A stretch of DNA of 61,511 nt from a virus (IMGVR_UViG_3300044634_003809:1-61511); one strand, 5' to 3'; shown: positions 39,401 to 55,142, numbered from the stretch's first letter. Translations and numbers: made by a program. Notes: a model not told the origin generated them from the sequence alone.

Positions 39401-42400
39401 ATCAAGGTACTCAAGGTGTTCAAGGAGATCAAGGTACTCAAGGTACTACTGGTCCAGTAGCAGGTTCTGCAAATCAAATTGTTTATAAAGATGGTTCAAA
39501 TAATCCTGCCGGATCTAATAATTTAACTTTTGATGGTTCCAATCTTTATGTTGGTGGTAATATCACAATTGGTGGTACTACAGCGTTTATTGCTGTTAAT
39601 GAATTAGTAGTTAAAGATAAAGATATTGTACTTGGTATTAATACAGATTCTTTTGGTAATGATATCTCTACAGATACAACAGCAAGTAGTGGTGGTATTG
39701 CTATTGCATCGACTGAAGGAACTCCATTAATTAGTATGAACTCTGGTGGAGAAATAACACCAGATACCTATAAGCAATTGATGTGGTTTAAGTCCGGTAG
39801 TTGTACAGGACTCAATACTGATGCTTGGATATTCAATTATGGTGTTGGTATTGGTACAACCATAATAAGTAACGGTGTAAGACTTGCTGCAGGTGCTATT
39901 AATGTCTTAGATAATAAATTAAACGTAAATGGCGATATTGATTTTAGTGGAACATTCTATCAGAATGGAAGTCCCTTTGTAGCATCAAGATGGTCTGCTG
40001 GAACTGGGAATAATATTTACCGATTAAATGGTAATGTTGGTATTGCAACCACAGATCCAACAGATTCCTTGGATGTAAATGGAAATATAAGAGTTCGTTC
40101 TGGACTTAAAGATTATTATGGAAATGTAGGTACTGCCGGTTCAATTTTAGTTTCAACTGGTGTTGGAGTTTCTTGGGCCACTGCATTTGATGCTGGACTT
40201 CAAGGAACTCAAGGTGTTCAAGGTGTTCAAGGACTTCAGGGAACTCAAGGAACTCAAGGACTTCAAGGAACTCAAGGACTTCAGGGAACTCAAGGAACTC
40301 AAGGAACTCAAGGTGTTCAAGGAACTCAAGGTGTTCAAGGAGATCAGGGTGTTCAGGGGACTCAAGGTAACCAAGGTGTTCAGGGACTTCAAGGAACTCA
40401 AGGACTTCAGGGCACTCAAGGATTACAAGGTAACCAAGGACTAAGCAACCAAGGTGTTCAAGGAACTCAAGGACTTCAGGGAACTCAAGGAACTCAAGGA
40501 CTTCAGGGAACTCAAGGAACTCAAGGATCTCAAGGACTTCAGGGAACCCAAGGACTTCAGGGAACCCAAGGAACCCAAGGACTTCAGGGAACCCAAGGAA
40601 CTCAAGGAGTTGGTACTCAAGGTAGCCAAGGTGTTCAGGGACTTCAGGGAACTCAAGGACTTCAAGGCAATCAAGGACTTCAAGGCACTCAAGGTACTCA
40701 AGGTGTTTTGGGTGCTCAGGGAACTCAAGGCACTCAAGGTATTCAAGGTATTTTGGGTGCTCAGGGAACTCAAGGAACTCAAGGAAGACAGGGGACACAA
40801 GGAACTCAAGGTGTTCTGGGAATTCAAGGATCTCAGGGTACTCAAGGTAATCAAGGACCTCAGGGAACTCAAGGAACTCAAGGAACTCAAGGTAATCAAG
40901 GACCTCAGGGAACTCAAGGAACTCAAGGTAATCAAGGACTTCAGGGCACTCAAGGAACTCAAGGTAATCAAGGACCTCAGGGTACTCAAGGAACTCAAGG
41001 AGTTGGATCTCAAGGTCTTCAAGGTACTCAAGGTACTCAAGGAAGACAAGGAACTCAAGGAGTTGGATCTCAAGGAACACAAGGTGTTCAAGGTATCGTA
41101 GGTCCAGTAGCAGGATCTGCCAATCAGATTGTTTATAAGGACGGTTCAAATAATCCTACAGGTTCTAACAGTCTTACATATACCGGAACAGTATCTGGTG
41201 TTGGTACTGTGGGAATCGGTACTATTATTGATATTGTTCATTATGATACTTTAAATTCGGGTACTCTTTCGTTTGAAGGTTCTGCAGGACAACTCTTTAG
41301 TATTACAAACAATTTAACAACTGGAAGTATCTTTAGTGTAAATGATGTTTCAGGTATTCCAAGTATTGATGTAGATGCAAATGGTACTGTTGAACTGGCA
41401 CCTTTTGGTGGCAATGTTGGTGTTGGTCTTACAAATCCAACAAATACGTTCCATATTTCTGGTTCTCCTGGTACAATAGTGAGAATTGATGGCGGCGCTG
41501 CTGGAACAGGAACAAGAGATATTTTTATCAGTGAATTTAATACAACGGCATATGGTGGTATTATACGTTATGATAGTACTGCAGATTTATTTACTTTTGG
41601 AACTGTAGAAAATTCTACGTTCCAATATGCATTAAATGTTGGAAGAAGTACTGGAAATGTTTCTATAGGAAATAGTACTGTAGGATCCACATTTAAATTA
41701 GATGTATTTGGAAATATTCGTTTAGGTAGTAACGTATCTGGTGCGACTGGAACACCTGCATATTTAAGTTTAGGTCAAAGTTTTTCTAGTGGTTCTGCAA
41801 GATCAAATTGCAAAATTCGTCTTTATGATAATGGTGCCGATGTTTATGGGTTTAGTGTTGGTTCTGCAGGTGATGTTCAATACCATTCAACAACAACTCA
41901 CCAATTTTATAATAGTGATGTAGCAACTTTATCGGTAAATGGTACTGCACCATCTTATAAAGGAAATACAATCTGGCACGCAGGTAACGATGGTTCTGGA
42001 AGTAGTTTAGATGCTGATTTACTTGATGGAAATGATAGTTCTTATTTCTTAAATACTAGTACGCCTGGTCAATCCAAGACCGGACAATTATGGGCTTCTT
42101 ATGGAAGCACTTCAATTGGAGGTTATAGTTGGGTTGATGCTGCATTCACTACAAACTCTATTGAAATTGTCAATAATAATGGAACGGTAACTAATTTATC
42201 ACCAACTCTTGCATTCCACAGATACGGAAGTGGTGGTCCGCAGTTTAGATTAGACCCCACAGGAACAAATGTTTTATATCTAGAATCTGCAAATGCGAAT
42301 AGTGCAAGAAATCCAAATTCCCAAGGAAATACATATTTTGCTTCATTAAGTTTAACTAGTTCAGATACAAATGGAATATATGTAAATACAAACAAAGTAT

Positions 42401-45400
42401 GGCACGCTGGTAATGATGGTTCTGGAAGTGGTCTTGATGCTGATTTACTTGATGGTCTTAATTCGGCAACAGCAAACACGGTATCCACTATAGTTGCCCG
42501 TGATGCTTCTGGTAACTTTAGTGCTGGTACTATAACAGCAGGTTCTTTTGTAAAATCCGGTGGAACCTCAACACAATTCTTAAAGGCAGATGGATCTGTT
42601 GATTCCAATACTTATATTACATCAGGATCTATTGGAAATGGTACTTTAACTCTTAATGTTTCTGGTACTGGTTTAAGTGGTTCTCAAACATTTACTGCTA
42701 ACCAAAGTAGTAATGCAACATTTACAGTAACCTCTAATGCTACTTCAGCGAATACGGTATCCACTATAGTTGCTCGTGATGCTTCTGGTAACTTTAGTGC
42801 TGGTACTATTACTGCTGCATTAAGTGGTAATGCAACAACAGCATCATCAACTCCAGGTTGTACTTTTTCAAATGATGCAACAAATCGTGCTGATATCACT
42901 ACAAGAGTGGATAGTGGTTTTTATGAGCACGATACTGCAACAACTGGAGAAGGTTGGCCATTAACCTCTAATACCTGGGCACATTTGCTTGCTTGTACGC
43001 ATAGTAATGATGCAAATTATTACTCAATGCAGATTTCCGCGAGTTTTTACAATAATAGCGACTTATTTTATAGATCGACAAATGGAAGTGGAACTACTGC
43101 CTGGACTAGAATTTGGAATGCAACAAATGATGGTTCTGGTAGTGGTCTTGATGCTGATTTACTTGATGGTCTTAATGCAACAACAGCAAACACTGGTTCT
43201 ACTATTGTTTCTAGAGACTCTTCTGGTAACTTTAGTGCTGGTACTATTACTGCTACGTTAAGTGGTTCTGCATCATCATTAGCCCTTTCTAGTGCTACGA
43301 TTTCTTCAAGTAGTTGGGCTGGTGGTAGTGGATATCACGGTTATACTTATAGTGGTGGTAATTTTAGATTTGGTTTTTCCTCAACTTCTGGAGTTGTTGA
43401 TGTTTATGCTGATGGTAATTTTTACGCTACTGATAGTTCTCATTTAGTATGGCACGCTGGTAATGATGGTTCTGGTAGTGGTCTTGATGCTGATTTACTT
43501 GATGGTCTTAATAGTAGTTCATTTGTGAGAACAGATTCTCGTTCCGCAATATCAATAAATTCAAGGGGAACTTCTTATACAGCATCAAGTTTAGAGTTAT
43601 ATACAGGAGACAATACTCCCCCTGGTTTATCTTTTCATAGGGGTGGATACTCTGCTGTAAATTTATATGAAAGTAATGGATATCTATATCAAGAGAGATG
43701 GGCGGGGGGAGGTGGATTAATTTGGCACTCTGGTAATGATGGTTCTGGAAGTGGTCTTGATGCTGATTTACTTGATGGTATTAATAGTTCTGCTTTCTTG
43801 TATGATAAAGGAAATTCTCCCACAGATTTAAATACCGCTGGTATGGGTATATGGAGAATTAATACCGGACAAACAAATCAACCTTCTGGAACAGACTATG
43901 GAACTTTAGTTAGTATTGACAATTCATCAGATACTGGTTTTCAATTGGCGTCAGATTATACATCAACTAATTTTTATTGGAGGTCTGGAAATTCATCTAT
44001 TTATGGTGGTGGCGGATCTTTTGGAAGTTGGAGAAAAATATGGCATGATGGTAATGATGGTTCTGGAAGTGGTTTAGATGCTGATTTACTTGATGGTTAT
44101 AATACTTCAACTTCAGGAAGCGCAAATACCATTGCTCTAAGAGAAGGTAACGGCCATCTTTATATGAATTATGGTTTTGCTAATTATTTTAATTCTCCAG
44201 ATGACGTAAGTGCCGGAACCATTACTTATATTATGGCAAAGTTTGGTGATAATTATTATCGTTCTGCCACTGCCGCAAAGGTCGCTTCCTTTATTAGTGG
44301 TCAGACTATGAATATTAGTGGTAATGCTACTACAGCAAGTAGTAGTCCGACTTTATCAGCACTTTCAAACTATGTCTGGAGTGCTTCCACTCTTCCGACA
44401 TCTTTTGCGAGTGGTATTCAATGCTCTTTTGTATCTTCTACTGAAGGATTCCAAAATTATGGGTCCGTAATGACAATGAGAACATACGCTGGAGGTGGCG
44501 GGTCTTTACAACTTTATGTTCCATACTCACCAACTTATGGCGGGAACGGAATGCAAGTCAGATTTGGCAATTATGATGTTTCCTCTGGAAATTCTTGGAC
44601 CTCTTGGAAAACTGTATGGGATTCCGGTAATGATGGTTCTGGAAGTGGTTTAGATGCTGATTTACTTGATGGATTGCAATTGCATACTGGAAGAAATAAT
44701 GAGGCAAATAAAGTCGTAAGAACTGACGGTAGTGGATACTTACAGACCGGGTATATCAACTCATCTAATGGAAATGAAGGTAATAACAGTAGTCCAGCAA
44801 GGGTATGGGGTACAAATGGTAGTGATGATTATTTAAGAACTTATTTGACAAGTGCTCTTTCTGCGGGTTATTCAATAAACTATACTCAAGGTTTCAACTC
44901 CAACTGGAACACTGATTTCCAAGCAGCACCTGCAGGAAGTACAATTCTTCGTGGTGATACATCCACTGGAAGTTCTACTGGTGGTCCTGGCGGAACTTGG
45001 TGGTTCCAACAAAATATGCGACACACAAACTCTAGTAATTTCTGGGGCGTTCAGGTTGCTTGGGGATGGGAAGATAATGCAAACCGATTAAGAACAAGAA
45101 ATGTTCAAAATGGTAGTTATGGTGGTTGGGTTAATTACTGGAATGATAATAATGATGGAGCAGGTAGTGGTCTTGATGCTGATTTATTGGATGGATTTAA
45201 CTCCGACAGATTCTTGAGATCCTTAGGTCATCCTGGATATGGTGATTGGAACACCTTTGGAAATGCTCAACAAACCGTTTATGAGATATTACAAGAGAAC
45301 TTTAACGCTGGGACTAACACCGGAAGTTCTAATTTTCCGACTAATAGGGCATATAATTACGGAACATTGGTAAATTTTGGTGCTAATAGTTCCGCAAGAG

Positions 45401-46647
45401 CACAGGTCTATATTAGCCATGCTGGTAATGACTTAATCTTTAGAGGCGGTTGGGGTACTGCAAGTTGGCAAACTTGGAATAGGGTCTGGACAGACATCAA
45501 TGATGGTTCTGGTAGTGGTTTAGATGCTGACTTACTTGACGGTATCAATTCTGGAAGTTTTTACAGATCTGATGCTAGTAATACTGCATTTGGTGGTGTA
45601 TTTACGTTCAGGTCTGCAGATTCAGTTGATGTTACGAATACTGGTCAAATTAATGGTCTTCAAGTATATCAAAATAATGCAGGAGCAGATGCATTAATGT
45701 CGTTCCACGTAGGAGGAGATTTCGCCTGTCACTTTGGATTAAGTGGCGGTGTAAATGATCTGGTTGTTGGTGGATGGAGTTTTGGTGCAAATGAATATAG
45801 AGTTTGGCACGCAGGAAATGATGGTTCTGGAACTGGATTAGATGCTGATTTATGGGATGGATATCAACTTTCAACAAGAACAAACTGGTCTTCTAATAGT
45901 GCCGGTAATATTGTCGTTGGTCAGTTGTCTTGGAAAAACTATGGTAATAATCACACTATATTTGATGCTTCTAACGGCACTTCTCCAGATGGTGGGGCAG
46001 TCAGCAATACAGATTCTCAAGTTGCTTGGACTGGAACATATCCAACTCTTATGGGGTGGAACGGTGCAAATACATATGGAGTAAGAGTTGATAGTGCTAG
46101 AGTTTCTGATAGCACATCATCAGTATCTTCATCTGTTTTGGGTAGTGGAACCGCAAATAGTACAACATATCTTCGTGGGGATAGAACTTGGCAAACTATT
46201 AGTGGAGGGGCAACTCTTTCAAATGATACGACTACAAATGCCACTTGGTATCCAACATTAAGTTCTGCGACTTCAGGAACATATTCAACAGCATATGTTT
46301 CAAATACTAAACTAACATTCAACCCATCTACAGGAACATTATCTGCAACAGTCTTTACATCACTATCTGACAAATCTCAAAAAACTAACATAAGATCTAT
46401 TGAAAATGCACTTGATATCACTAAACAACTTAATGGTGTTAGATTTAATTGGATAGATAATAATAAACCTTCAGTTGGTGTAATTGCACAAGAAGTTGAA
46501 AATGTATTTTCAGAACTTGTTGAAGAAGTTAATGAACATAAAACTGTAAATTATAATGGATTAGTTGCATTATTGATAGAAGCAATCAAAGAGCAACAAG
46601 AACAAATAAATACTTTAAGAAAAGAAATTCAAAATTTAAAAAAATGA
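36496..46647 (+). CDS. Giant collagen-like tail fibre (3383 aa) with modular knob region and C-terminal peptidase S74 chaperone
   Basis: Two Gly-X-Gln tracts; ten W-x3-NDGSGSGLDADLLDG-type linkers; pyocin-knob-like modules; C-terminal SDKSQKTNI...GVIAQEVE...VNYNGLVALLIEAIKE. Confidence 0.9.
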   Translation: MPSVSLGSTGYNIVVGSSSQISVATTSLHQEINKVTVGYSPSLKATRESNSLQGVQGIQGVFGGQGSQGTQGFIGDQGTQGLQGSLSNFQGTQGVQGFSGEYGAQGTQGNQGLQGNQGTQGTQGVQGNQGTQGSQGAQGTQGNQGIQGTQGAQGLSNQGTQGAQGLSNQGTQGAQGLSNQGNQGVQGNQGVQGNQGIQGTQGNQGTQGNQGSQGLSNQGTQGTQGFSGEYGAQGTQGNQGNQGVQGDQGVQGVQGTQGVQGDQGVQGVQGLSNQGTQGTQGVQGIQGTQGNQGVQGFQGTQGNQGVQGFQGTQGNQGVQGTQGVQGFSGEYGAQGNQGTQGSLGTLGLTGSQGTQGIQGFQGVQGFQGNQGIQGNQGIQGLSNQGTQGIQGIQGIQGIQGIQGVQGIQGIQGLSNQGTQGTQGTQGTQGFSGEYGAQGNQGLQGNQGTQGTQGNQGLQGTQGTQGTQGTQGNQGLQGNQGLQGTQGNQGLQGNQGVQGVQGLSNQGSQGAQGLSNQGIQGTQGLQGDQGTQGTQGIQGVQGLSNQGTQGSQGSQGTQGRQGTQGAQGLSNQGTQGTQGLQGDQGTQGTQGIQGVQGLSNQGTQGNQGNQGSQGSQGLQGNRGNQGTQGVQGNQGTQGLQGLSNQGTQGAQGLSNQGTQGPQGLSNQGTQGVQGLSNQGTQGPQGTQGLQGNQGPQGTQGVGSQGLQGNQGNQGNQGVQGLSNQGTQGVQGLSNQGIQGNQGLQGLSNQGVQGIQGSLSNFQGVQGDQGVQGLRGARGDFQGTQGAQGTEGEQGTQGNQGTQGVQGLSNQGTQGTQGTQGTQGNQGVQGLQGTQGNQGVQGLQGTQGNQGTQGNQGVQGTQGTQGTQGNQGTQGTQGNQGVQGLQGTQGTQGTQGNQGVQGLQGTQGNQGTQGTQGNQGVQGLQGLQGIQGVQGLQGTQGTQGTQGNQGVQGLQGTQGVQGDQGVQGLSNQGTQGVQGDQGTQGTTGPVAGSANQIVYKDGSNNPAGSNNLTFDGSNLYVGGNITIGGTTAFIAVNELVVKDKDIVLGINTDSFGNDISTDTTASSGGIAIASTEGTPLISMNSGGEITPDTYKQLMWFKSGSCTGLNTDAWIFNYGVGIGTTIISNGVRLAAGAINVLDNKLNVNGDIDFSGTFYQNGSPFVASRWSAGTGNNIYRLNGNVGIATTDPTDSLDVNGNIRVRSGLKDYYGNVGTAGSILVSTGVGVSWATAFDAGLQGTQGVQGVQGLQGTQGTQGLQGTQGLQGTQGTQGTQGVQGTQGVQGDQGVQGTQGNQGVQGLQGTQGLQGTQGLQGNQGLSNQGVQGTQGLQGTQGTQGLQGTQGTQGSQGLQGTQGLQGTQGTQGLQGTQGTQGVGTQGSQGVQGLQGTQGLQGNQGLQGTQGTQGVLGAQGTQGTQGIQGILGAQGTQGTQGRQGTQGTQGVLGIQGSQGTQGNQGPQGTQGTQGTQGNQGPQGTQGTQGNQGLQGTQGTQGNQGPQGTQGTQGVGSQGLQGTQGTQGRQGTQGVGSQGTQGVQGIVGPVAGSANQIVYKDGSNNPTGSNSLTYTGTVSGVGTVGIGTIIDIVHYDTLNSGTLSFEGSAGQLFSITNNLTTGSIFSVNDVSGIPSIDVDANGTVELAPFGGNVGVGLTNPTNTFHISGSPGTIVRIDGGAAGTGTRDIFISEFNTTAYGGIIRYDSTADLFTFGTVENSTFQYALNVGRSTGNVSIGNSTVGSTFKLDVFGNIRLGSNVSGATGTPAYLSLGQSFSSGSARSNCKIRLYDNGADVYGFSVGSAGDVQYHSTTTHQFYNSDVATLSVNGTAPSYKGNTIWHAGNDGSGSSLDADLLDGNDSSYFLNTSTPGQSKTGQLWASYGSTSIGGYSWVDAAFTTNSIEIVNNNGTVTNLSPTLAFHRYGSGGPQFRLDPTGTNVLYLESANANSARNPNSQGNTYFASLSLTSSDTNGIYVNTNKVWHAGNDGSGSGLDADLLDGLNSATANTVSTIVARDASGNFSAGTITAGSFVKSGGTSTQFLKADGSVDSNTYITSGSIGNGTLTLNVSGTGLSGSQTFTANQSSNATFTVTSNATSANTVSTIVARDASGNFSAGTITAALSGNATTASSTPGCTFSNDATNRADITTRVDSGFYEHDTATTGEGWPLTSNTWAHLLACTHSNDANYYSMQISASFYNNSDLFYRSTNGSGTTAWTRIWNATNDGSGSGLDADLLDGLNATTANTGSTIVSRDSSGNFSAGTITATLSGSASSLALSSATISSSSWAGGSGYHGYTYSGGNFRFGFSSTSGVVDVYADGNFYATDSSHLVWHAGNDGSGSGLDADLLDGLNSSSFVRTDSRSAISINSRGTSYTASSLELYTGDNTPPGLSFHRGGYSAVNLYESNGYLYQERWAGGGGLIWHSGNDGSGSGLDADLLDGINSSAFLYDKGNSPTDLNTAGMGIWRINTGQTNQPSGTDYGTLVSIDNSSDTGFQLASDYTSTNFYWRSGNSSIYGGGGSFGSWRKIWHDGNDGSGSGLDADLLDGYNTSTSGSANTIALREGNGHLYMNYGFANYFNSPDDVSAGTITYIMAKFGDNYYRSATAAKVASFISGQTMNISGNATTASSSPTLSALSNYVWSASTLPTSFASGIQCSFVSSTEGFQNYGSVMTMRTYAGGGGSLQLYVPYSPTYGGNGMQVRFGNYDVSSGNSWTSWKTVWDSGNDGSGSGLDADLLDGLQLHTGRNNEANKVVRTDGSGYLQTGYINSSNGNEGNNSSPARVWGTNGSDDYLRTYLTSALSAGYSINYTQGFNSNWNTDFQAAPAGSTILRGDTSTGSSTGGPGGTWWFQQNMRHTNSSNFWGVQVAWGWEDNANRLRTRNVQNGSYGGWVNYWNDNNDGAGSGLDADLLDGFNSDRFLRSLGHPGYGDWNTFGNAQQTVYEILQENFNAGTNTGSSNFPTNRAYNYGTLVNFGANSSARAQVYISHAGNDLIFRGGWGTASWQTWNRVWTDINDGSGSGLDADLLDGINSGSFYRSDASNTAFGGVFTFRSADSVDVTNTGQINGLQVYQNNAGADALMSFHVGGDFACHFGLSGGVNDLVVGGWSFGANEYRVWHAGNDGSGTGLDADLWDGYQLSTRTNWSSNSAGNIVVGQLSWKNYGNNHTIFDASNGTSPDGGAVSNTDSQVAWTGTYPTLMGWNGANTYGVRVDSARVSDSTSSVSSSVLGSGTANSTTYLRGDRTWQTISGGATLSNDTTTNATWYPTLSSATSGTYSTAYVSNTKLTFNPSTGTLSATVFTSLSDKSQKTNIRSIENALDITKQLNGVRFNWIDNNKPSVGVIAQEVENVFSELVEEVNEHKTVNYNGLVALLIEAIKEQQEQINTLRKEIQNLKK
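36652..39450 (+). repeat. Collagen tract 1 of giant fibre (~930 aa)
   Basis: QG[TVNLISA] triplets with recurring LSN, FSGEYGA and SLSNF interruptions. Confidence 0.95.
40195..41100 (+). repeat. Collagen tract 2 of giant fibre (~300 aa)
   Basis: QG[TLV] triplets; like tract 1, ends in GPVAGSANQIVYKDGSNNP. Confidence 0.95.
41974..45861 (+). repeat. Ten dispersed in-frame ~57-bp linker repeats (W-x3-NDGSGSGLDADLLDG)
   Basis: Trp codons at 41974, 42400, 43114, 43450, 43723, 44041, 44617, 45139, 45487, 45805. Confidence 0.95.
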
Positions 46648-46931
46648 TTAGTACTTACACGGATTCTGAAAAAATGATTATTACTTACGTAGTTTCCGAA
46701 TATACTGCAGAAGATAAAACAGTAGAAGTGACTTATGAAAATTCAGAGGGACTTATTCATAAAAGAAATATCAATATCCCACATCTAGGAGATGGAAGTA
46801 TTGATGAAGAATATTTACAAGAAATTCTTGAAGGACAACTACGAGGCGTAGAAAATAAAGCAAAAATTGGGGTGATACAATTTATAGACCCTAATGCAGA
46901 AGAAGTTGTAGAAGAAGTTGTAGAAGAGTAA
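46644..46931 (+). CDS. Hypothetical protein (possible fibre assembly helper)
   Basis: ATGA overlap with the fibre stop; acidic tail; second in-frame ATG at 46674. Confidence 0.65.
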   Translation: MISTYTDSEKMIITYVVSEYTAEDKTVEVTYENSEGLIHKRNINIPHLGDGSIDEEYLQEILEGQLRGVENKAKIGVIQFIDPNAEEVVEEVVEE

Positions 46932-46939
46932 AAACTTAA

Positions 46940-46946
46940 ATAAATA
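46940..46946 (+). promoter_or_regulatory. Late promoter motif ATAAATA
   Basis: Within TTAAATAAATAAAT upstream of 46979/47178. Confidence 0.6.
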
Positions 46947-46978
46947 AATTTGATTCTGAAATATTTAATTTTAAAAAA

Positions 46979-47173
46979 ATGAAAGAACAACAACAGCATT
47001 TGGAAACTATCTTAAAGCAACAGAAAGATCTTGCAGTAGAAATTCAAGAATTGAGTACCACTATTGCGATTAAAAAAGAACAATTTTTAAAACTTCAAGG
47101 AATTGTAGAGTATTTAAATTCTTTAGGAGTAGAAAAAACTCAAGAAGTGCCTGAAGTGCAAATAGATGAATAA
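46979..47173 (+). CDS. Small coiled-coil protein
   Basis: Heptad-like LETILKQQKDLAVEIQELSTTIAIKKEQFLKLQGIVEYL. Confidence 0.65.
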   Translation: MKEQQQHLETILKQQKDLAVEIQELSTTIAIKKEQFLKLQGIVEYLNSLGVEKTQEVPEVQIDE

Positions 47174-47177
47174 TTAA

Positions 47178-48389
47178 ATGTCTAGACCCAATCAGTTTTT
47201 ATCCCCAGAAGGTGATATAGAAGATTATTTTGTGGATGAATATTGGTTGATTGACCAGTGGGTTGGAGACCAATTGTGGGTTTGGGGGGCCGCATCAAGA
47301 TTATCTGGAAATGGAGCACTTGGAAACGGAGCAACAACAGGTAACATAAGCACTCCAATCACCACATTTGCCGGAGGAACCAACTGGAAACAAGTGGATG
47401 GTGGACTTGTTCAAACAGCAGCAATCAAAACTGATGGAACCTTATGGACTTGGGGTTATAATGTGCAAGGACAACTTGGAAACGCACAAGTAACCAATAG
47501 ATCTACTCCAGTCACCACATTTGCTGGAGGAACCAACTGGAAACAAGTTAGTTGTGGAGATACTCATACAGCAGCAATCAAAACTGATGGAACCTTATGG
47601 ACTTGGGGTCTTACGAATGATGGACGACTTGGAAACGGAATAACAACATTAGGTACCAGATCCACTCCAATCACCACATTTGTCGGGGGAAATAATTGGA
47701 AACAAGTTAGTTGTGGATCTGGTAATACATCAGCAATCAAGACTGATGGAACCTTATGGACTTGGGGTATTGGAACTAATGGACGACTTGGAAACGGAAT
47801 AACAACAGGCAATATATCCACTCCAATCACCACATTTGCCGGAGGAACAAACTGGAAACAAGTGAGTACTGGAAGATTTCATACAGCAGCAATCAAGACT
47901 GATGGAACCTTATGGATTTGGGGTCAGGGAACTGTTGGGCAACTGGGAAATGCACAAATAATCAATATATCCACACCAATCACCACATTTTCTGGAGGAA
48001 CTAACTGGAAACAAGTTAATTGTGGAGAACTTCATACAGCAGCAATCAAGACTGATGGAACTTTATGGATTTGGGGTTCTGGAGATAATGGACAACTGGG
48101 AAATGCACAAATAATCAATATATCCACACCAATCACCACATTTTCTGGAGGAACCAACTGGAAACAAGTGAGTGGTGGAAGTGGTCATGCAGCAGCAATC
48201 AAGACTAATGGAACCTTATGGACTTGGGGTCTTGGAAATTATGGACGACTTGGAAACGCACAAACAACCAACGTATCCACTCCAGTCACCACATTTGCTG
48301 GAGGAACCAACTGGAAACAAGTGAGTGGTGGAAATGTTCATACAGCAGCAGTTGAAGCAGGTATCAACGCCGAGTACCCACTCTCATAA
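47178..48389 (+). CDS. RCC1/BLIP-II-like 7-bladed beta-propeller protein 1
   Basis: Seven ~51-53-aa repeats LWxWG-x4-GxLGN...STPITTFAGGTNWKQV-x5-HTAAIKTDG. Confidence 0.9.
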   Translation: MSRPNQFLSPEGDIEDYFVDEYWLIDQWVGDQLWVWGAASRLSGNGALGNGATTGNISTPITTFAGGTNWKQVDGGLVQTAAIKTDGTLWTWGYNVQGQLGNAQVTNRSTPVTTFAGGTNWKQVSCGDTHTAAIKTDGTLWTWGLTNDGRLGNGITTLGTRSTPITTFVGGNNWKQVSCGSGNTSAIKTDGTLWTWGIGTNGRLGNGITTGNISTPITTFAGGTNWKQVSTGRFHTAAIKTDGTLWIWGQGTVGQLGNAQIINISTPITTFSGGTNWKQVNCGELHTAAIKTDGTLWIWGSGDNGQLGNAQIINISTPITTFSGGTNWKQVSGGSGHAAAIKTNGTLWTWGLGNYGRLGNAQTTNVSTPVTTFAGGTNWKQVSGGNVHTAAVEAGINAEYPLS

Positions 48390-48392
48390 ATA
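48386..48392 (+). promoter_or_regulatory. Late promoter motif ATAAATA
   Basis: Contains the stop codon of propeller 1; 13 nt upstream of ATG 48406. Confidence 0.55.
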
Positions 48393-48405
48393 CTCAAAAA
48401 CGATA

Positions 48406-49074
48406 ATGGAAATAGCACTCATTCATAACAACTCATTAGAACTTGGTCCTTTCGGGATGAATGTTCATTATATCAATCAAGAGTTAGAAGAACTTGAAGT
48501 AGAAGAGAGAGTATCTCCTCAAAGTTTTTCTGAACTTCCTATTCATTTTAGTGATGGACTTACTCATCTACTTCCAACAGAAAGAGTCATTCCAGAGAAC
48601 GACCCAAAGTATCAAAATGTAGGAAACTTTACTTGGGAAATTGTTGAAGAAAATGGTGTTTCCACTAAAGTAGTATTCACTTATCCAATTATTGATAAGA
48701 CTTTAGAAGAAGTCAAGGTAATTCGCAAGCAAGAAGTTGCTCCAGCAAGAAGACAGAAAGAAAATACTATTACTACTCTTACGGTCAATAATACTGAAGT
48801 AGAAGTATCAACCTCAAGAGAAGAGAGATTGATGCTTGCAAGTAAACTTTCAGCATCTCCTGGGCCTCATAACTTTAAGTTCCAGAATACTTGGTTAGAG
48901 ATTACTACAGAAGAACTTCAATATATTGTAAGTGAAGTTGATAAAGTAGTTCAAGAAGCATTTGACTGGGAATTAGCAAAACTTCAAGAGATTGATGCTT
49001 GTGAGACGATTGATGAGGTTTATGATGTTGTGATTGTAGAGCAACCAGAACCCCCTCAATTACCAGTAGAGTGA
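48406..49074 (+). CDS. DUF4376-like / tail-fibre-assembly-like protein
   Basis: KTLEEVKVIRKQEVAPARRQKE...HNFKFQNTWLEITTEEL...VQEAFDWE...IDACETIDEV pattern; start moved from 48325 to 48406 to avoid overlap. Confidence 0.6.
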   Translation: MEIALIHNNSLELGPFGMNVHYINQELEELEVEERVSPQSFSELPIHFSDGLTHLLPTERVIPENDPKYQNVGNFTWEIVEENGVSTKVVFTYPIIDKTLEEVKVIRKQEVAPARRQKENTITTLTVNNTEVEVSTSREERLMLASKLSASPGPHNFKFQNTWLEITTEELQYIVSEVDKVVQEAFDWELAKLQEIDACETIDEVYDVVIVEQPEPPQLPVE

Positions 49075-49075
49075 A

Positions 49076-50317
49076 ATGAGTAGAGTAGAAACAACCACTA
49101 ACTTTAGAGATAGTTTTGGTACTGATTTGGGTAGAAAGTTGGTCACCAAAGACTATCTAATCAGTGTCTATCCTGAAATTGGAGATAAGATTGGTATTCC
49201 TCCAGAGTTGTGGACTTGGGGTGATGGACAATTTGGAAGACTTGGAAACGCTGTAATAACAGGTACCAGAAGTGCTCCAAGTACAACATTTGCTGGAGGA
49301 ACTAACTGGAAACAAGTGAGTGCTTTAAAACGTCATACAGCAGCAATCAAAACTGATGGAACCTTATGGACTTGGGGTTATGCAGAGTCTGGAAGACTTG
49401 GAAACGCTGTAATAACAGGTAACAGAAGTACTCCAGTCACCACATTTTCCGGCGGAACCAATTGGAGACAAGTGAGTTGTGGAGGTTATCATACAGCAGC
49501 AATCAAAACTGATGGAACCTTATGGGGTTGGGGTGCTAATAGTAATGGACAACTTGGAACTAATGATTCAGGTAACAGAAGTACTCCAGTCACCACATTT
49601 TCCGGCGGAACCAATTGGAGACAAGTGAGTTGTGGAGATAATCATACAGCAGCAATCAAAACTGACGGAACTTTGTGGATTTGGGGCAGGGGAAATAATG
49701 CAAGACTTGGAAACGCTCTAACAACAGGTAATAGAAGCACTCCAATCACCACATTTGCTGGAGGAACTAACTGGAAACAAGTGAGTTGTGGAGGTTATCA
49801 GACAGCAGCAATCAAAACTGATGGAACCTTATGGACTTGGGGTTATGGGAGTAAATCGCGACTTGGAAACGGAGCAATATCAGGTAACAGAAGTACTCCC
49901 GTCACTACATTCGCTGGAGGAACTAATTGGAAACAAGTGAGTTGTAATCTTAATAATACAGCAGCAATCAAAACTGATGGAACATTATGGACTTGGGGTG
50001 ATGGAAGTTATGGACGACTTGGAAACACACAAACAACCGATAGATCCACTCCAATCACAACATTTGCTGGAGGAACTAACTGGAAACAAGTTGCTTGTGG
50101 ATATCGACATACAGCAGCAATCAAAACTGATGGAACTTTATGGACTTGGGGGTATGAAAATAATGGAGCACTTGGAAATAATAGAATAGACCCTTTTTTT
50201 CCAGCATCCATAGTTAGTCCAATTACCACATTTGCCGGAGGAACCGACTGGAAACAAGTAACTTGTGCATATCAACATACAGCAGCAATCAAATCAGTAG
50301 ACTTTTCACCATTCTAA
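49076..50317 (+). CDS. RCC1/BLIP-II-like 7-bladed beta-propeller protein 2
   Basis: Seven repeats with the same framework; Arg/Tyr-rich variable loops. Confidence 0.9.
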   Translation: MSRVETTTNFRDSFGTDLGRKLVTKDYLISVYPEIGDKIGIPPELWTWGDGQFGRLGNAVITGTRSAPSTTFAGGTNWKQVSALKRHTAAIKTDGTLWTWGYAESGRLGNAVITGNRSTPVTTFSGGTNWRQVSCGGYHTAAIKTDGTLWGWGANSNGQLGTNDSGNRSTPVTTFSGGTNWRQVSCGDNHTAAIKTDGTLWIWGRGNNARLGNALTTGNRSTPITTFAGGTNWKQVSCGGYQTAAIKTDGTLWTWGYGSKSRLGNGAISGNRSTPVTTFAGGTNWKQVSCNLNNTAAIKTDGTLWTWGDGSYGRLGNTQTTDRSTPITTFAGGTNWKQVACGYRHTAAIKTDGTLWTWGYENNGALGNNRIDPFFPASIVSPITTFAGGTDWKQVTCAYQHTAAIKSVDFSPF

Positions 50318-50323
50318 TAAATA
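50317..50323 (+). promoter_or_regulatory. Late promoter motif ATAAATA upstream of the enzyme cluster
   Basis: 24 nt upstream of ATG 50348. Confidence 0.55.
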
Positions 50324-50347
50324 CGTAAAATACATTCAATATTCTTT

Positions 50348-51688
50348 ATGAACCCTCTTGAGTTGGTCACAAAAACTCTACACTCCTTCAACGAAAAAGA
50401 ACTTACCTCACAAATTCTACAAGCATTTGGTAAGAGAGCAGAAACTTTTGAGCAACATAATGATGTTGCCAAGATTTTCTTTGAAATTAAAGATTTCTCA
50501 AATGCTATTACTTATGGTGAGAAAGCACTTAAGTTAGCAAAGTCAAAAGAAGAACTTTATATTACTACAAAAAACCTCATAAACGCATACAACCAAAATA
50601 ATTATCCAGAGAAAGCAATAACTCAAATCTCAAAAATTAAATCACAAAATCCCCAAGATACTGAACTTCTTCTTGAGGAAACTTTTTCATACTCTGCTCT
50701 GAATCAAAAAGAAAAATCAGAAAAACTTTTATTTGACCTAATTAAAAAACCACTACCAGAAGAGATTGAAAGAAAGGCATATCACAATCTTTCTGGACAT
50801 TATTTCCGTAAAGATGATATTCGTACAGGACTTCAACACTTTCTCAAAGCAGGAGAAGTGGAGGCATATAAGAATAAAAAGTATCCAAACTATGAGAAGT
50901 GGGATGGAACAGTAACTCCAGGTAGAACGATTATTATTGATAGTCAGTGTGGTGCTGGTGATGAAGTGATTCACGTTCGGTTTATGAAGCACCTAAAAGA
51001 ACTTGGAATGAATCCAATCTGGACAACAACCAGAAAAGATATTCAAGAACTCTTTAACTATAATGGTTTCCGTACTGAACTTGTATGGGATAATCCAGAG
51101 TTTCCAAAAGATTCTTGTTGGGTTTATGCTCTTGCTCTTCCTTATTATCTCAATCTCAAAGTAGAAGATTTGGGGCAAACTCCTTATCTCAAACCACTAC
51201 CACAGAAAGAAGAGCAATATTCTTATCTACAAGAAGATAATAACTATAAGATTGGTACATTCTGGAACTCTGGTTCTGGATTTGAACAAGCACATTTCCG
51301 TTCAATTGATGCTGATGATTTATTCAAAGTTCTATCAAAAACTAATTCATCATTATATTCACTTCAACTACCAGACCAACAACCACCAGAGTATTATGAG
51401 GTAAATACTTTTGATATTCCAAATCGTGATTTTACGGATACATTTTCACTTGTATCTCAAATGGACTTGGTGATTACTTCTTGTACTTCTATTGCTCACA
51501 TAGCAGCATCAATGGGTAAAGAAGTTTGTGTGTTTGTACCAATTATGGAATATTATGTCTGGACTAGTAGTACAGGAAAGTCTTGGTGGTATGGGGATAA
51601 TGTTCATTTGTTTAAACAAAAGAAACCGAGAAATTGGGACGAACCTTTGAAACAATTGAAGGAGTTTCTAAATGATAGAGGAATATAA
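50348..51688 (+). CDS. TPR-repeat + GT-B (GT9/heptosyltransferase-like) glycosyltransferase
   Basis: N-terminal TPR-like helices; WDG...TIIIDSQCGAGDEVIHVRF; DFTDTFSLVSQMDLVITSCTSIAHIAASMGK; WY..V.LF.Q...W. Confidence 0.8.
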   Translation: MNPLELVTKTLHSFNEKELTSQILQAFGKRAETFEQHNDVAKIFFEIKDFSNAITYGEKALKLAKSKEELYITTKNLINAYNQNNYPEKAITQISKIKSQNPQDTELLLEETFSYSALNQKEKSEKLLFDLIKKPLPEEIERKAYHNLSGHYFRKDDIRTGLQHFLKAGEVEAYKNKKYPNYEKWDGTVTPGRTIIIDSQCGAGDEVIHVRFMKHLKELGMNPIWTTTRKDIQELFNYNGFRTELVWDNPEFPKDSCWVYALALPYYLNLKVEDLGQTPYLKPLPQKEEQYSYLQEDNNYKIGTFWNSGSGFEQAHFRSIDADDLFKVLSKTNSSLYSLQLPDQQPPEYYEVNTFDIPNRDFTDTFSLVSQMDLVITSCTSIAHIAASMGKEVCVFVPIMEYYVWTSSTGKSWWYGDNVHLFKQKKPRNWDEPLKQLKEFLNDRGI

Positions 51689-52130
51689 CCTTTCTTTTCT
51701 CAATCTAAATATCATTAAGAACAAACTTCTTGAAATAGAAACCAGTCCTCACGGACTTGTGACTAAAGGTGTTTCTACTTATAATCACGGAATGCCCACT
51801 CTAATGTATCCAGAACTCACTGGATTAAAGAATGTTATTAAACAATATGTTAGACTATATTGTAATAAGTATGAGATTCCACCTTTAAAGTTTATCAATA
51901 GTTGGTTTAATATTTCACAACCAGGAAATAAACTTAAAGCACATAAGCACGAAGAAAGTATTGTAAGTGGTGCATTTTATATTTCTGGAAAAACCCCACT
52001 TATTTTTCCAGATACAAAAGTAAATCCATATCCAGGACTTTTAGTTGTCTTCTCAAGTGATTTGGTTCATTATACAGAAGAAGAAACAGAAGAAAGAATT
52101 ATTATTAGTTTTAATACAGATTACCTATGA
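51672..52130 (+). CDS. 2OG-Fe(II) oxygenase (TIGR02466-like)
   Basis: SWFN...AHKH...SGAFYI...PGLLVVFSSDLVH...RIIISFN. Confidence 0.8.
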   Translation: MIEEYNLSFLNLNIIKNKLLEIETSPHGLVTKGVSTYNHGMPTLMYPELTGLKNVIKQYVRLYCNKYEIPPLKFINSWFNISQPGNKLKAHKHEESIVSGAFYISGKTPLIFPDTKVNPYPGLLVVFSSDLVHYTEEETEERIIISFNTDYL

Positions 52131-52915
52131 AATTTTTATTTTTGGTTGGTTCAGCACTTAAACACTTCCAAGAAGAAAAGTTTAGTGCTTATGATGAAGA
52201 ACAAAGATTTGAGCAAACACTAAAAACAATTGAATGTATAAGAGAAAAAGTTCCTAACTCTTATGTCGTTTTATTTGAGTGTTCTTCTAAACCAATTGAT
52301 GAGAAGCAAAAAGAGGTACTCAAAGAAAAAGCAGATTTGTTTTTAGAGTTTTATAATGAACCAGTACTCAAACAGATTTATGAAAATCTAGAATCAAGAC
52401 CAGAATTGATTACTTATGGTAAATCATTATTAGAAACCAGAGGATTATTGAATACTCTTTATGTAATCAAGAAGCATAATTTGTTTAGTGATAGCCAAAG
52501 AGTATTCAAACTGACTGGAAGATACTTACTGAATGAGTATTTTGATATTAAAGATTATGAATCAAAATTTCTTGAGGAAAAATATGTAATCAAAAAGTAT
52601 GATTATCTTCCACAAGAGGCAGAGAATTTTGATGAGAAAGAACTTGAGAATGTTTATGCCTATCTTTATGGTGCTCAAGGTATGATGGTAACTGGTCTAT
52701 GGTCTTTTGACCGTATTCTGTTTAATGAGATTGTTGAGTCACTTGAAAAAGCATTTGTTTATATGGAAAAGATGCTTCAATTTACAGCAGGTACTGATGT
52801 TGAGCATTCTCTTTATCGGTTCTTGAACAAAAAAAATGTGATTAGTATTCCAAATCTTGGTCTTACAACGATTAAGGGAATGAGTGGTGAGAATGGAGCA
52901 AGTTATAATATATGA
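52127..52915 (+). CDS. Uncharacterised protein, possible glycosyltransferase-like
   Basis: RFEQTLKTIECIR, VVLFECS, RVFKLTGRYLLN, DVEH; ATGA-coupled within glyco cluster. Confidence 0.5.
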   Translation: MKFLFLVGSALKHFQEEKFSAYDEEQRFEQTLKTIECIREKVPNSYVVLFECSSKPIDEKQKEVLKEKADLFLEFYNEPVLKQIYENLESRPELITYGKSLLETRGLLNTLYVIKKHNLFSDSQRVFKLTGRYLLNEYFDIKDYESKFLEEKYVIKKYDYLPQEAENFDEKELENVYAYLYGAQGMMVTGLWSFDRILFNEIVESLEKAFVYMEKMLQFTAGTDVEHSLYRFLNKKNVISIPNLGLTTIKGMSGENGASYNI

Positions 52916-53565
52916 AACTAGCAATCTTTTATCATATTGGGCAGATTGGTATTGGTGCTTTTGTTTATATTAATCAGGTTCATAGACTTTATACTTCAGG
53001 ATTAATCAAAGAAGCATCTTATATTCACTTTGGAGTGAATGGAAATCAAGAACTCTTTAATATTCCTAATAATACAAAGGTTGTTTATAATCAAAATCAT
53101 AAGGAAGAAACAGAAACTTTAATGTCTTTACGTGATTTTTGTAAACAAAATCCAGATTATAAAGTTCTTTATTTTCATACTAAAGGAGTATCAAAAGAAA
53201 GTATGAATGCTGAAAGTTGGAGATTGATGATGGAATATTTTGTGATTGATAGATGGAAAGAATGTGTAGAATACTTGAATGATTATGATGTTGTTGGAAG
53301 TAATCTCAAAGTTTTGGGACCAACCACTTGGAGTGATGGTAGACAATCGTGGGAGAAAGCAGGAACTCAACATTTTGTAGGAAACTTTTGGTGGGCAAAT
53401 GCTTCTTATGTAAATACTTTAAGTGATGAGTTTTTGGAAAGTGACTTTAGATTAGACCGTGAGTTCTGGATTGGTACTGGAGATGGTAAAATGAAATCTT
53501 TATATCAACCAGAAGATTACGAACCTTATACATACTTTTACCGGGAGAAGGATTATGTTTCGTGA
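52912..53565 (+). CDS. Uncharacterised protein, possible glycosyltransferase-like
   Basis: AIFYH, VLYFHTKGVS, WRLMMEYF, HFVGNFWWA, REFWIG; ATGA-coupled. Confidence 0.5.
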   Translation: MKLAIFYHIGQIGIGAFVYINQVHRLYTSGLIKEASYIHFGVNGNQELFNIPNNTKVVYNQNHKEETETLMSLRDFCKQNPDYKVLYFHTKGVSKESMNAESWRLMMEYFVIDRWKECVEYLNDYDVVGSNLKVLGPTTWSDGRQSWEKAGTQHFVGNFWWANASYVNTLSDEFLESDFRLDREFWIGTGDGKMKSLYQPEDYEPYTYFYREKDYVS

Positions 53566-53908
53566 ATGTGGAGAATGCACTGCATGTTGCAGTTGGTTAG
53601 TTGCTAATATCTATGGATGGGAAATTGGTGGCGGAAAGTCTTGTAAATTTTTAGAGTGTAATGGTTGTGGTGTCCATAATGCAAGAGCAGAGGTTTGCAG
53701 AAACTATCAGTGTGCTTGGACGCAACATTTACTTCCAGAAGAAATGAGACCTGATAAATCTAATATAATAGTCTCTGTAGAGAATAATCCAAATGGGCAA
53801 CATTTAAAAGTATTGCCAATAAATAATAAAGAAATAAAACCTGAAGTTAAACAATACCTTCAAAAGTGGAGTGAGAGTATGAACACTCCTGTGATTTTTA
53901 TAGAATAA
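53555..53908 (+). CDS. YkgJ-family CxxCxxCC cysteine-cluster (Fe-S/Zn) protein
   Basis: CGECTACC...CKFL...GCGVH..R.EVCRNYQCAW. Confidence 0.8.
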   Translation: MFRECGECTACCSWLVANIYGWEIGGGKSCKFLECNGCGVHNARAEVCRNYQCAWTQHLLPEEMRPDKSNIIVSVENNPNGQHLKVLPINNKEIKPEVKQYLQKWSESMNTPVIFIE

Positions 53909-53930
53909 AAGTCGTTTCCAAGAACTCAAA

Positions 53931-55118
53931 ATGCCAGCCTTTTATAACTTTACAGAAAACGGACTTGTTTATAGTTTTGATGACATTTTTGTTCCTGCTG
54001 ATTTTTTTCGTGAAGGGAATTTGTGGACTTGGGGTTCTGCAATTAGTATTCAACTTGGTGATGGTTCGACAACAGGTAATAGAAGTACTCCAATAACTAC
54101 ATTTGCTGGGGGAGCAAATTGGAAATCTGTCCAAGATTCTTTTAACACATCAACTGCGGCAGCAATTAAAACTGATGGAACCTTATGGATTTGGGGAAGT
54201 CAATTTAACGGACAATTAGGAATTAATAACACTGGCAATAGAAGCACTCCAGTTACAACATTCGCCGGAGGAACCAATTGGAAACAAATTACTTTTGGTT
54301 CTGCTCATGCCGTAGCAATTAAAACCGATGGAACCTTATGGACTTGGGGATTTGGTGGAAGACTTGGAAACGGAACAACAACTGGCAACATAAGCACGCC
54401 AGTCACCACATTTGCTGGAGGAACCAACTGGAGACAAGTAAGTTGTGGTGATGCCCACACAGTAGCAATCAAAACTGATGGAACTTTATGGGCTTGGGGT
54501 TCTGGTGGACAAGGAAAACTTGGGAATGGTTTAGTTTCAGCCGTAGCAGTTATATCAACTCCAATCACAACATTTGCTGGAGGAACCAACTGGAGACAAG
54601 TTGCATGTTCAAATAATATGACAGCAGCAATCAAAACTGATGGAACTTTATGGGTTTGGGGTGATGCTGCAAATTCATTGCTTGGAAACGGATTAACAAC
54701 AGGTAGCATAAGTACTCCAATCACAACATTTGCTGGAGGAACCAACTGGAAACAAGTTTCCAGCGGAGGCAATCACACAGCAGCAATCAAAACTGATGGG
54801 ACCTTATGGACTTGGGGTTCTGGTGCTAATGCCATTGGAAATGGAAGCTTTCCTACTAGTACTCCAGTCACCACATTTGCTGGAGGAAATAACTGGAAAC
54901 AAGTAAGTTGCGCGAATGCAATTGCTACAGCAGCAATCAAGGCTGATGGAACCTTATGGACATGGGGTGCTGGTAATAATGGAATACTTGGAGAAAGATC
55001 TACATATGGTACTAAAAGCACTCCAGTCACCACATTTGCTGGAGGAACCAATTGGAGACGGGTCGGTTCTTCTGGCAATGGTTTTGCTGCACTCACATAC
55101 GATGACCCTGTGATATAA
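53931..55118 (+). CDS. RCC1/BLIP-II-like 7-bladed beta-propeller protein 3
   Basis: Seven repeats with the same framework. Confidence 0.9.
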   Translation: MPAFYNFTENGLVYSFDDIFVPADFFREGNLWTWGSAISIQLGDGSTTGNRSTPITTFAGGANWKSVQDSFNTSTAAAIKTDGTLWIWGSQFNGQLGINNTGNRSTPVTTFAGGTNWKQITFGSAHAVAIKTDGTLWTWGFGGRLGNGTTTGNISTPVTTFAGGTNWRQVSCGDAHTVAIKTDGTLWAWGSGGQGKLGNGLVSAVAVISTPITTFAGGTNWRQVACSNNMTAAIKTDGTLWVWGDAANSLLGNGLTTGSISTPITTFAGGTNWKQVSSGGNHTAAIKTDGTLWTWGSGANAIGNGSFPTSTPVTTFAGGNNWKQVSCANAIATAAIKADGTLWTWGAGNNGILGERSTYGTKSTPVTTFAGGTNWRRVGSSGNGFAALTYDDPVI

Positions 55119-55142
55119 TACATAATAAGAAAGCAATAAACT

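Follow-up and report, generated by a model that had tools for sequence, protein, structure and literature searches.

IMGVR_UViG_3300044634_003809 is a virus record of 61,511 bases, estimated to be 27% complete, and its entire length is referred to below as the window. It harbors three genes for seven-bladed propellers of the RCC1 type, all on the plus strand: gene A in position 1 (47178..48389, 403 amino acids (aa)), gene B in position 2 (49076..50317, 413 aa) and gene C in position 3 (53931..55118, 395 aa). The proteins combine a nearly invariant framework with hypervariable loops. In addition, the N-terminal peptide and the C-terminal tail differ from position to position, and these end-pieces are conserved across phages, a feature newly found here.

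The G+C content of the window ranges from about 31 to 43%. A megablast search with the propeller region returned a sole match, Synechococcus phage S-SRM01, with 78.6% identity over 38% of the query; this phage is a freshwater member of the Kyanoviridae with a genome of 240.8 kb. The 61.5 kb of the window come from a T4-like cyanophage of fresh water, a relative of S-SRM01. S-SRM01 shares the gene order of the window: a tail fibre gene, an RCC1 gene, a hypothetical protein and another RCC1 gene, followed by a 'tetratricopeptide repeat protein', a 2OG-Fe(II) oxygenase, four hypothetical proteins, an RCC1 gene and a sulfotransferase. Large co-directional open reading frames (ORFs) fill the upstream part of the window, where the counterpart region of S-SRM01 is annotated with baseplate wedge and tail-fibre genes. 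The propeller genes lie at the distal end of this baseplate and tail-fibre module and share its direction.

Relatives were collected by two scans. Scanning IMG/VR with protein B gave 213 pattern matches and 210 related stretches, kept as 63 loci, and the adjacent gene, used in the same way on metagenome contigs, yielded 86 relatives, retained as 78 loci. Detailed counts refer to the window together with 14 loci (L001, L003, L009, L013, L015, L017, L021, L023, L024, L032, L037, L040, L045 and L058), selected from 64 loci (L001-L064) as non-identical contigs with all three positions; duplicate contigs (e.g. L004-L007, which equal L003) and contigs cut short were omitted. In 23 studies, lake-water runs contain at least part of the propeller region, and no RNA run was among the datasets listed as containing it. 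In S-SRM01 and two further related genomes, both rated 100% complete, RCC1 repeats are confined to just three ORFs.

Fold and end-pieces of the propellers

Proteins A, B and C match the Pfam families RCC1, RCC1_2 and WD40_RLD with E values of 1e-42 to 3.5e-84, far over the curated cut-offs. Scores of A, B and C are 204, 225 and 145 bits for RCC1 (PF00415, cut-off 21.7) and 251, 284 and 192 bits for WD40_RLD (PF25390, cut-off 150). All 19 RCC1-type matches of the window fall within these three frames, 18 of them above the cut-off and one at 20 bits, and the other Pfam matches for A and B are weak, below cut-off and to unrelated domains, with no gp38 family among them. Every gene consists of exactly seven STPxTTFxGGTNWKQV units, 21 in total, with blades of 49-56 aa. 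A sequence-only reading of the window had counted seven blades per gene, and the repeat units bear that count out. The seventh unit is a part-blade, which is completed by the N-terminal LWxWG strand.

The assignment of A and C relies on ORF, Pfam and repeat alignment, and that of B additionally on structure prediction. Protein B aligns to UVR8 by sequence with an E value of 3.6e-49. Its AlphaFold2 (AF2) model, built with 24 sequences, reaches a predicted local distance difference test (pLDDT) of 81.5 and a predicted template modeling score (pTM) of 0.82, and displays 29 strands, four per blade, with ring closure by the N-terminal strand. The best Foldseek matches of the model are the RCC1-like domains of RPGR, UVR8 and HERC2, at template modeling (TM) scores of 0.76-0.81. 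Family matches and model together point to true RCC1-like propellers with seven blades in a closed ring. The window propellers share with RCC1, UVR8, HERC2 and RPGR the family match and the seven-bladed architecture, but they are phage-encoded, repeat a uniform framework 21 times and carry position-specific end-pieces. Eukaryotic RCC1 is the Ran exchange factor; family membership is structural only in the present case, as neither Ran exchange nor chromatin binding is expected in a cyanobacterial phage, and there is no more reason to expect the UV sensing of UVR8.

The N-terminal peptides are conserved by position in 36 of 36 genes from the 15 genomes, 12 of 12 at each position. In position 1, the peptide (MSRPNQFLSPEGDIEDYFVDEYWLIDQWVGD, 47178..47270) follows the consensus MPNQFLSPEGDLENYFV(S/T)EYWLIDQ(W/Y)(V/I)GD. 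The position-2 peptide (..TNFRDSFGTDLGRKLVTKDYLISVYPEIGDKIGIPPE, 49076..49207), predicted to be partly helical, follows TNF(K/R)DSxGxDLGxKL(I/V)TKDYLxSVYPxI...PEL, and that of position 3 (MPAFYNFTENGLVYSFDDIFVPADFFREGN, 53931..54020) follows MPTFYNFxxxGxxYSFDD(V/I)FVPADxFRxGN. Distinct peptides with a loosely shared pattern had been noticed before; the pattern is present and takes the form NF..G.D...FV in all three. Taking all loci together, 143 of 164 distinct RCC1-type ORFs fit the three N-terminal types (39, 63 and 41 for positions 1, 2 and 3, respectively), and 13 of the 21 unclassed ORFs start less than 200 nucleotides (nt) from a contig end. Between the window and its closest relative, L073, the position-2 peptide displays no nonsynonymous and one synonymous change.

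The C-terminal tails are AGINAEYPLS in position 1 (48357..48386), SVDFSPF in position 2 (50294..50314) and ALTYDDPVI in position 3 (55089..55115), each of them identical in the same position of L058. Other position-1 genes end in related ...P(D/E)(L/Y)P(L/I)S tails, and the classes of positions 2 and 3 are ..(S/T)xD(F/Y).. and ..TY(I/D/E)D(P/S).., respectively. The direct positional counterparts in S-SRM01, namely gp335, gp337 and gp344, are ordered as in the window and fall into identical end-piece classes, three in number; their propeller bodies, however, are ~60% identical to those of the window, gp335 has six units, and all three are annotated only as 'regulator of chromosome condensation'. 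In L029 (9968-11302) and L045 (7960-9270), the usual ..P(D/E)LPxS tail of the position-1 propeller is replaced by a proline-rich one, PPPPPPPPGG..DDN.

The same end-pieces flank one to about five propellers, giving proteins of two, three and about five propellers with lengths of up to 2291 aa. ORFs with fused propellers (about three to five or more, 1159-2291 aa) are found in L047/L048 (5804-12679), L013 (11835-15314) and L037 (1702-5214). Some relatives have four or five RCC1 genes, and three propeller genes are a common but not a fixed number among them. A duplicated slot, with two adjacent genes bearing the position-1-type peptide, occurs in L022, L057 and L084, and L053 has five RCC1 genes. 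The suggestion of the sequence-only reading that three copies would suit a trimeric fibre finds no support in these data: the end-pieces of the three genes differ and are each conserved separately, and the numbers of propellers and of genes vary.

Variable loops on a constant framework

Across 362 blades from the 15 genomes, entropy exceeds 3 bits only at columns 20, 21, 37, 39, 40 and 47 of the blade. Columns 20 and 21 are the xx of CGxxH, which comes after QVSCG, columns 37, 39 and 40 follow WG, and column 47 follows LGN, while the TFAGGTN and KTDGT loops stay below 1.2 bits. The proposal of a near-invariant framework with variation in three loops per blade, after QV, WG and LGN, is confirmed by this distribution. 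Distinct sequences number 330 among 360 first loops and 285 among 307 second loops. At the seven most variable columns, S, N, Y, Q, G, T and R are frequent, and K, E, L, I and P are scarce.

In propeller blades with four antiparallel strands, the connections between strands 2 and 3 and between strand 4 and the next strand 1 lie on one face of the propeller, and those between strands 1 and 2 and between strands 3 and 4 on the other. The variable columns fall into the strand 2-3 turn and the loop from strand 4 to the next strand 1, whereas the strand 1-2 and strand 3-4 loops are those below 1.2 bits. Topology and predicted strands hence place the variable loop types on a single face, in line with the sequence-only reading. 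With the N-terminal peptide leading into the outermost strand and the C-terminal tail following on the third, both would emerge on the invariant face. In the alignment with UVR8, the variable xx and the residue after WG correspond to WR of GWRHT and W of YGW, positions that we take to be on the interaction face of UVR8.

Comparison with L058 illustrates how far the loops have diverged. Seven neighboring genes are 91% identical in protein between L058 and the window, compared to only 70, 71 and 53% for propellers A, B and C, and the propeller differences fall in the loops, with end-pieces and framework matching. Identity at loop columns is 0.384 for orthologous blades (same gene and blade number) and 0.396 for non-orthologous ones, whether these belong to the same gene or to another; the two kinds differ by no more than 0.05 in each of the 14 genomes. 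Loop residues have turned over completely between phages whose neighboring genes are 91% identical.

Codon changes provide a greater level of detail. L073 aligns to positions 48974-51846 of the window with 94.5% nucleotide identity and one single-base gap. In this pair, the gene B loops differ by 20 nonsynonymous and 4 synonymous changes, the gene B framework by 6 and 11, and the adjacent gene by 18 and 60 (Fisher test: p 1.7e-7 for loops against the neighboring gene, p 0.003 for loops against framework). Nei-Gojobori ratios of nonsynonymous to synonymous rates (dN/dS) of the loops are 1.5 against L073, 1.45 against L074 and 1.58 against L123, and 1.04, 0.96 and 0.93 for genes A, B and C against L076. 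The gene A loops give 0.73 against L074, a value from only 53 loop codons in a partial alignment (140 of 403). Framework ratios range from 0.10 to 0.21 and those of neighboring genes from 0.04 to 0.22. The loop class of these estimates includes conserved G, L and N, so that the variable sites must exceed the average. The scaffold is frozen while the loops change at the neutral rate or faster, and the earlier description of a constant scaffold with hypervariable loops is upheld by the rates.

Lake-water reads assembled as Logan contigs were compared with window positions 46600-57400 for four runs. The contigs break inside the shared framework (for instance at 54428 in all four runs), with many different continuations after the WG motif that possibly belong to other blades or other phages. 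Single-copy genes between the propellers are identical over long Logan pieces (e.g. 3688 nt with 0 differences, X2).

Framework DNA, conversion and allele exchange

The framework is conserved at the level of DNA. Framework codons for the same residue are the same codon at a frequency of 0.764 within genes and 0.731 between genes of the window (0.74 overall), compared to 0.44 expected from its codon usage, and fixed columns use genome-rare codons (ATC in 17 of 19; ACC in 12-14 of 18-21 at three columns). Codon identity and rare codons at fixed columns together indicate that synonymous sites are not saturated, so the claim of DNA-level conservation stands in the very test that had been proposed against it.

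Two exact tracts reported by the sequence-only reading are real, and both are maximal. On the plus strand, a 62-bp tract joins the A4/A5 and A5/A6 blade boundaries (47940-48001 = 48093-48154) and includes the loop NAQIIN, and a 69-bp tract joins the B1/B2 and B2/B3 boundaries (49416-49484 = 49569-49637). In 300 shuffles that preserved the codons of each column, the longest exact run had a mean of 44 and a maximum of 58, and none reached 62. Within 49574-49610, six positions set L073 apart from the window, which there matches its own B1/B2 and B4/B5 boundaries exactly; this identifies the 69-bp tract as a conversion in the window lineage. By this alignment, the conversion is dated to the time after the window split from L073.

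Exact tracts are mostly a property of single genes. Within genes, the longest tract reaches up to 135 nt and is at least 60 nt in 15 of 45 genes, whereas its median is 38 nt between genes of one genome (n=45) and 32 nt between non-orthologous genes of different genomes (n=630, maximum 61). Tracts of at least 60 nt are nearly all found within single genes. Framework codon identity with other phages amounts to 0.60-0.74, almost as high as within the window, and orthologous blades are no closer than non-orthologous ones. In distant genomes, blades are at least as alike as single-copy orthologues (L001: 0.71 vs 0.635), for which the genes interleaved with the propellers at 50348..53908 served as baselines. 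When the genes of one genome are compared with each other, their identity is above the mean to other genomes in all 15 cases, but above the highest other genome in only 7 of 15 (window: 0.731 vs 0.733). The tree of 36 propeller bodies is star-like, with one well-supported group of 16 that contains all three positions from seven phages, and position labels require nine changes on it, where the minimum is two.

These results bear on two further claims of the sequence-only reading, which both survive in part. Homogenization of the framework across all three genes holds only in part and was overstated, given codon identities of 0.60-0.74 between phages and 0.73-0.76 within the window. Shuffling of loops by conversion between blades and genes is supported on the side of the blades by the 69-bp event; on the side of the genes, the near-confinement of long tracts to single genes and the medians of 38 and 32 nt weaken it. 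We read the pattern as conversion that is probably frequent between blades of one gene and occasional between genes. Beyond conversion, there may be either exchange between phages or a selection that acts on the framework DNA as such.

Recombination between phages is visible in gene B. Between the window and L073, the synonymous divergence (dS) of gene B is 0.04-0.10, next to a neighboring gene with a dS of 0.27. For L074 and L123, the neighbor has a dS of 0.29 and the loops a dN of 0.42-0.48. The low dS of gene B beside a diverged neighbor, unlike the situation in L074 and L123, indicates one gene B allele common to the window and L073, on backbones that have diverged. Divergence between the two jumps at ~50300, a recombination joint at the gene boundary. 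Loop differences between the window and L073 are clustered, with as many as 11 changes per 33 nt. Apart from the conversion, there are five clusters with at least three differences; no donor turned up among the relative loci for four of them, and the fifth affects framework codons of which both versions recur in many loci.

Putative host-binding role and the neighboring genes

The gene upstream of the propeller region encodes a collagen-like tail fibre of 3383 aa (36496..46647, plus strand), which terminates in a Peptidase_S74 chaperone (Pfam E 7.6e-15, ~46366-46521) preceded by a conserved tip module of ~55 aa. The C-terminus of the fibre shows 68% identity to gp334 of S-SRM01, whose annotation reads 'long tail fiber protein distal subunit'. 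The tip, ...NPSTGTLSATVFTSLS followed by D, is conserved in seven of seven aligned fibres, and the remainder of the fibre varies between 295 and 3383 aa. The upstream gene and the position-1 propeller gene share 8 nt, stop over start, in 8 of 10 relatives checked, and the upstream gene ends in the tip module and S74 chaperone in all seven of these eight that were checked (the short upstream ORF of L058 is not among them). In the window, two small ORFs of 95 and 64 aa (46644..47173, plus strand) lie between fibre gene and propeller A, the 64-aa one matching phrog_20934 of unknown function. The conserved fibre tip and the conserved position-1 end-piece form a plausible candidate docking pair. 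As for the fibre itself, long GxQ/GTQGxQG collagen-like tracts are followed by about a dozen modules with WHAGNDGSGSGLDADLLDG-like motifs, and relatives carry the same fibre C-terminus on fibres of 295 to 2844 aa.

On balance, though with modest confidence, we favor the view that the three genes encode host-binding modules borne on the virion, with a gp38-like design realized on an RCC1 scaffold. N-terminal peptide and C-terminal tail would come together at the closing blade and probably serve as anchor to a fixed virion site, the candidate for position 1 being the conserved tip of the adjacent tail fibre. One or more seven-bladed propellers would form the cargo between the end-pieces. Strands and 'bottom' loops (TFAGGTN, KTDGT) would be kept constant, while the 'top' loops (the CGxxH turn and the WGxxxxGxLGNxxxxx connection) would form a binding face that diversifies under host-surface selection. 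New loop sets may arise through point substitution, through short conversion tracts between blades of a gene and through whole-propeller allele exchange between co-circulating phages, with the conserved framework DNA as the likely substrate of both recombination routes. Anatomy, fold class, conservation pattern and rates are demonstrated, as are one dated conversion and one allele exchange, whereas virion location, anchoring through the end-pieces and binding of host surface molecules are the parts of this view that we infer.

As an analogy of design, the closest parallel is gp38 of T2/T6-type phages. PMC3157838 describes gp38 as an N-terminal attachment domain with a specificity domain, in which hypervariable segments alternate with conserved glycine-rich motifs, and places gp38 exchanges within or near the conserved motifs. 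Both systems consist of a conserved attachment part and hypervariable segments separated by conserved motifs. The gp38 gene comes directly after the distal long-tail-fibre gene, as does the position-1 propeller in most relatives, whereas the window has the two intervening ORFs. There is no homology between the two, since the window fold is an RCC1-like seven-bladed propeller of ~400 aa, and the four segments of gp38 contrast with 21 or more variable loop sets. Unlike gp38, the propellers come as three positional paralogues with three different end-pieces and a variable propeller number, and their binding to a fibre tip is putative.

The fold itself has been met in phage particles and tail genes. 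E. coli phage W70 has three RCC1 proteins of 40-43 kDa, members of phrog_4219, all of which were detected in virions by mass spectrometry (PMC11370258), and the RCC1 protein of Cronobacter phage GAP32 (GAP_001) is structural as well, with many copies in related jumbo phages (PMC5259590). These proteins (W70_237-239 in the case of W70) resemble ours in their single-propeller size, in phrog_4219, in the three adjacent copies of W70 and in having been found in virions; they differ in giving no tblastn match at E 1e-5 and in belonging to different phage families and hosts. In BFVD, Foldseek matches to the fold include the 'Tail fiber protein' of Pseudomonas phage Littlefix and, in phage PollyC, a 'T7 tail fibre protein-like N-terminal domain-containing protein'. 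Our searches of the literature on RCC1 in cyanophages, phage receptor-binding proteins and phage virions found no earlier description of the system, the cyanophage results apparently consisting mostly of strain names of the RCC culture collection.

Very little is known about how freshwater cyanophages recognize their hosts, and the whole clade carries the same three-slot system. If host binding is indeed what the propellers do, they would be the likely specificity determinants of a clade of lake cyanophages, and the RCC1 propeller would join the small set of phage scaffolds for fast-evolving binding faces. Such a role would also correct the name-driven annotation 'regulator of chromosome condensation', which led authors to a DNA-packaging proposal. 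Binder engineering may further take an interest in a scaffold that is small, uniform and built from repeats, and that exposes 14 or more variable loops on one face.

A more far-reaching form of the host-binding view, which we hold to be doubtful, sees in the system an antibody-like display. Three anchor-specific tail slots would each present one to five propellers with a combinatorial repertoire of top loops, and the framework DNA, including the rare ATC and ACC codons, would be maintained as built-in recombination sites that shuffle loops between blades, genes and co-infecting phages.

Several observations weigh against a host-binding role on the virion. The 14 most variable columns yield dN/dS values of 0.95-2.37 over eight pairs, above 1 in seven of them, but Z exceeds 1.96 in only three of the eight, and with columns picked by amino-acid variability and all pairs sharing the window, these values are an upper view and not an independent test. 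Loop dN/dS near 1 is equally expected from unconstrained loops. The assignment of the variable sites to one face is derived from blade topology and predicted strands, not from coordinates. The authors who found RCC1 proteins in W70 virions suggested a role in DNA packaging (PMC11370258). For the window proteins, the virion location is putative, and the main text of the S-SRM01 paper makes no mention of RCC1, chromosome condensation or mass spectrometry. Finally, sugar-modifying genes are interleaved with the propellers, so the operon is not purely structural.

The first alternative, which we rate as rather unlikely, takes the propellers as decorations of the virion or fibre without a specific ligand, with top loops that are merely unconstrained and a framework kept for folding. 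It can draw on dN/dS values over all loop codons of 0.93-1.58, which are near neutral, on the limited significance of the variable-column tests and on the framework codon identity being nearly as high between phages as within them. Free drift of the loops, however, agrees poorly with their fixed lengths (the blades span 49-56 aa) and with a composition of the variable columns strongly biased to S, N, Y, Q, G and R. Nor does it fit well with the averaging noted above, by which conserved G, L and N hide faster variable sites, or with the 20 to 4 excess of nonsynonymous loop changes in the youngest comparison, that with L073. In addition, propeller number grows to two, three and about five under the same end-pieces, an expansion that suggests selection for avidity.

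Hardly different in probability, in our eyes, is that the propellers act inside the cell, as variable binders of host proteins such as defence or takeover targets, and are merely placed in the late region. Anti-defence proteins, too, are marked by binding faces that evolve fast, genes for non-structural sugar- and methyltransferases stand among the propellers, and no virion proteomics exists for the clade. Such a role leaves aside the close link with the fibre gene that 8 of 10 relatives show, and the position-specific end-pieces, which are conserved as in anchored tail proteins. It is also at odds with the distant RCC1 homologues that mass spectrometry detected in the virions of two other myoviruses, and with the fusion of the fold to tail-fibre N-terminal domains in other phages.

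We give little credit to the idea of packaged DNA-condensing or capsid-internal proteins, a role suggested by the family name and by earlier authors. All three window proteins match phrog_4219, which PHROGs files under nucleotide metabolism, and protein B has an isoelectric point (pI) of 9.6. The pI of protein A, on the other hand, is 7.7, and the name stems from eukaryotic RCC1 with its Ran exchange function, not from a DNA-compacting activity. DNA condensation predicts neither a place beside the fibre gene nor full turnover of one face between phages that are 91% identical elsewhere.

A diversity-generating retroelement that rewrites the loops can practically be dismissed: although targeted hypervariability in a phage host-recognition gene is a hallmark of such elements, the variation here is spread over three loops in each of 21 blades of three genes instead of one C-terminal variable repeat, and a reverse transcriptase (PF00078) was found in none of four related records, two of them 100% complete, the genome of the window being 27% present.

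Around the propellers, the T4-type late promoter motif (TATAAATA) gives 6 matches in comparison to 7.7 expected, with none near the propeller genes. Positions 1 and 2 are separated by a gene for an acidic protein of 223 aa (pI 4.4; 48403..49074, plus strand), with orthologues conserved at this place in 28 loci. It matches Pfam DUF4376 below cut-off (E 1.4e-4) and, weakly, phrog_10508 'tail fiber protein' (E 1.1e-6). Its AF2 model (pLDDT 90.4) combines a beta-rich N-terminal half with a long helical hairpin; Foldseek returned no PDB match for it at E <=0.001, and the best VIA-align hits, prefoldin and other helical hairpins at a Z of up to 7.0, are within the noise range of that tool.

The stretch 50348-59527, among and after the propellers, encodes a 446-aa protein with weak tetratricopeptide repeat (TPR) similarity, a 2OG-Fe(II) oxygenase, a sulfotransferase and two GT2 glycosyltransferase matches, as well as a double methyltransferase-GT2 fusion of 710 aa. 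These sugar- and methyl-modifying genes may target the virion, the collagen-like fibre or the host surface. Five genes are interleaved between positions 2 and 3 (50348..53908, plus strand), namely the weak-TPR protein, the 2OG-Fe(II) oxygenase, two hypothetical proteins and a Cys-rich protein of 117 aa, and are syntenic in S-SRM01. The 117-aa protein (53555-53908), directly upstream of propeller C and likewise syntenic in S-SRM01, has several CxxC pairs and matches phrog_9155, a family of unknown function.

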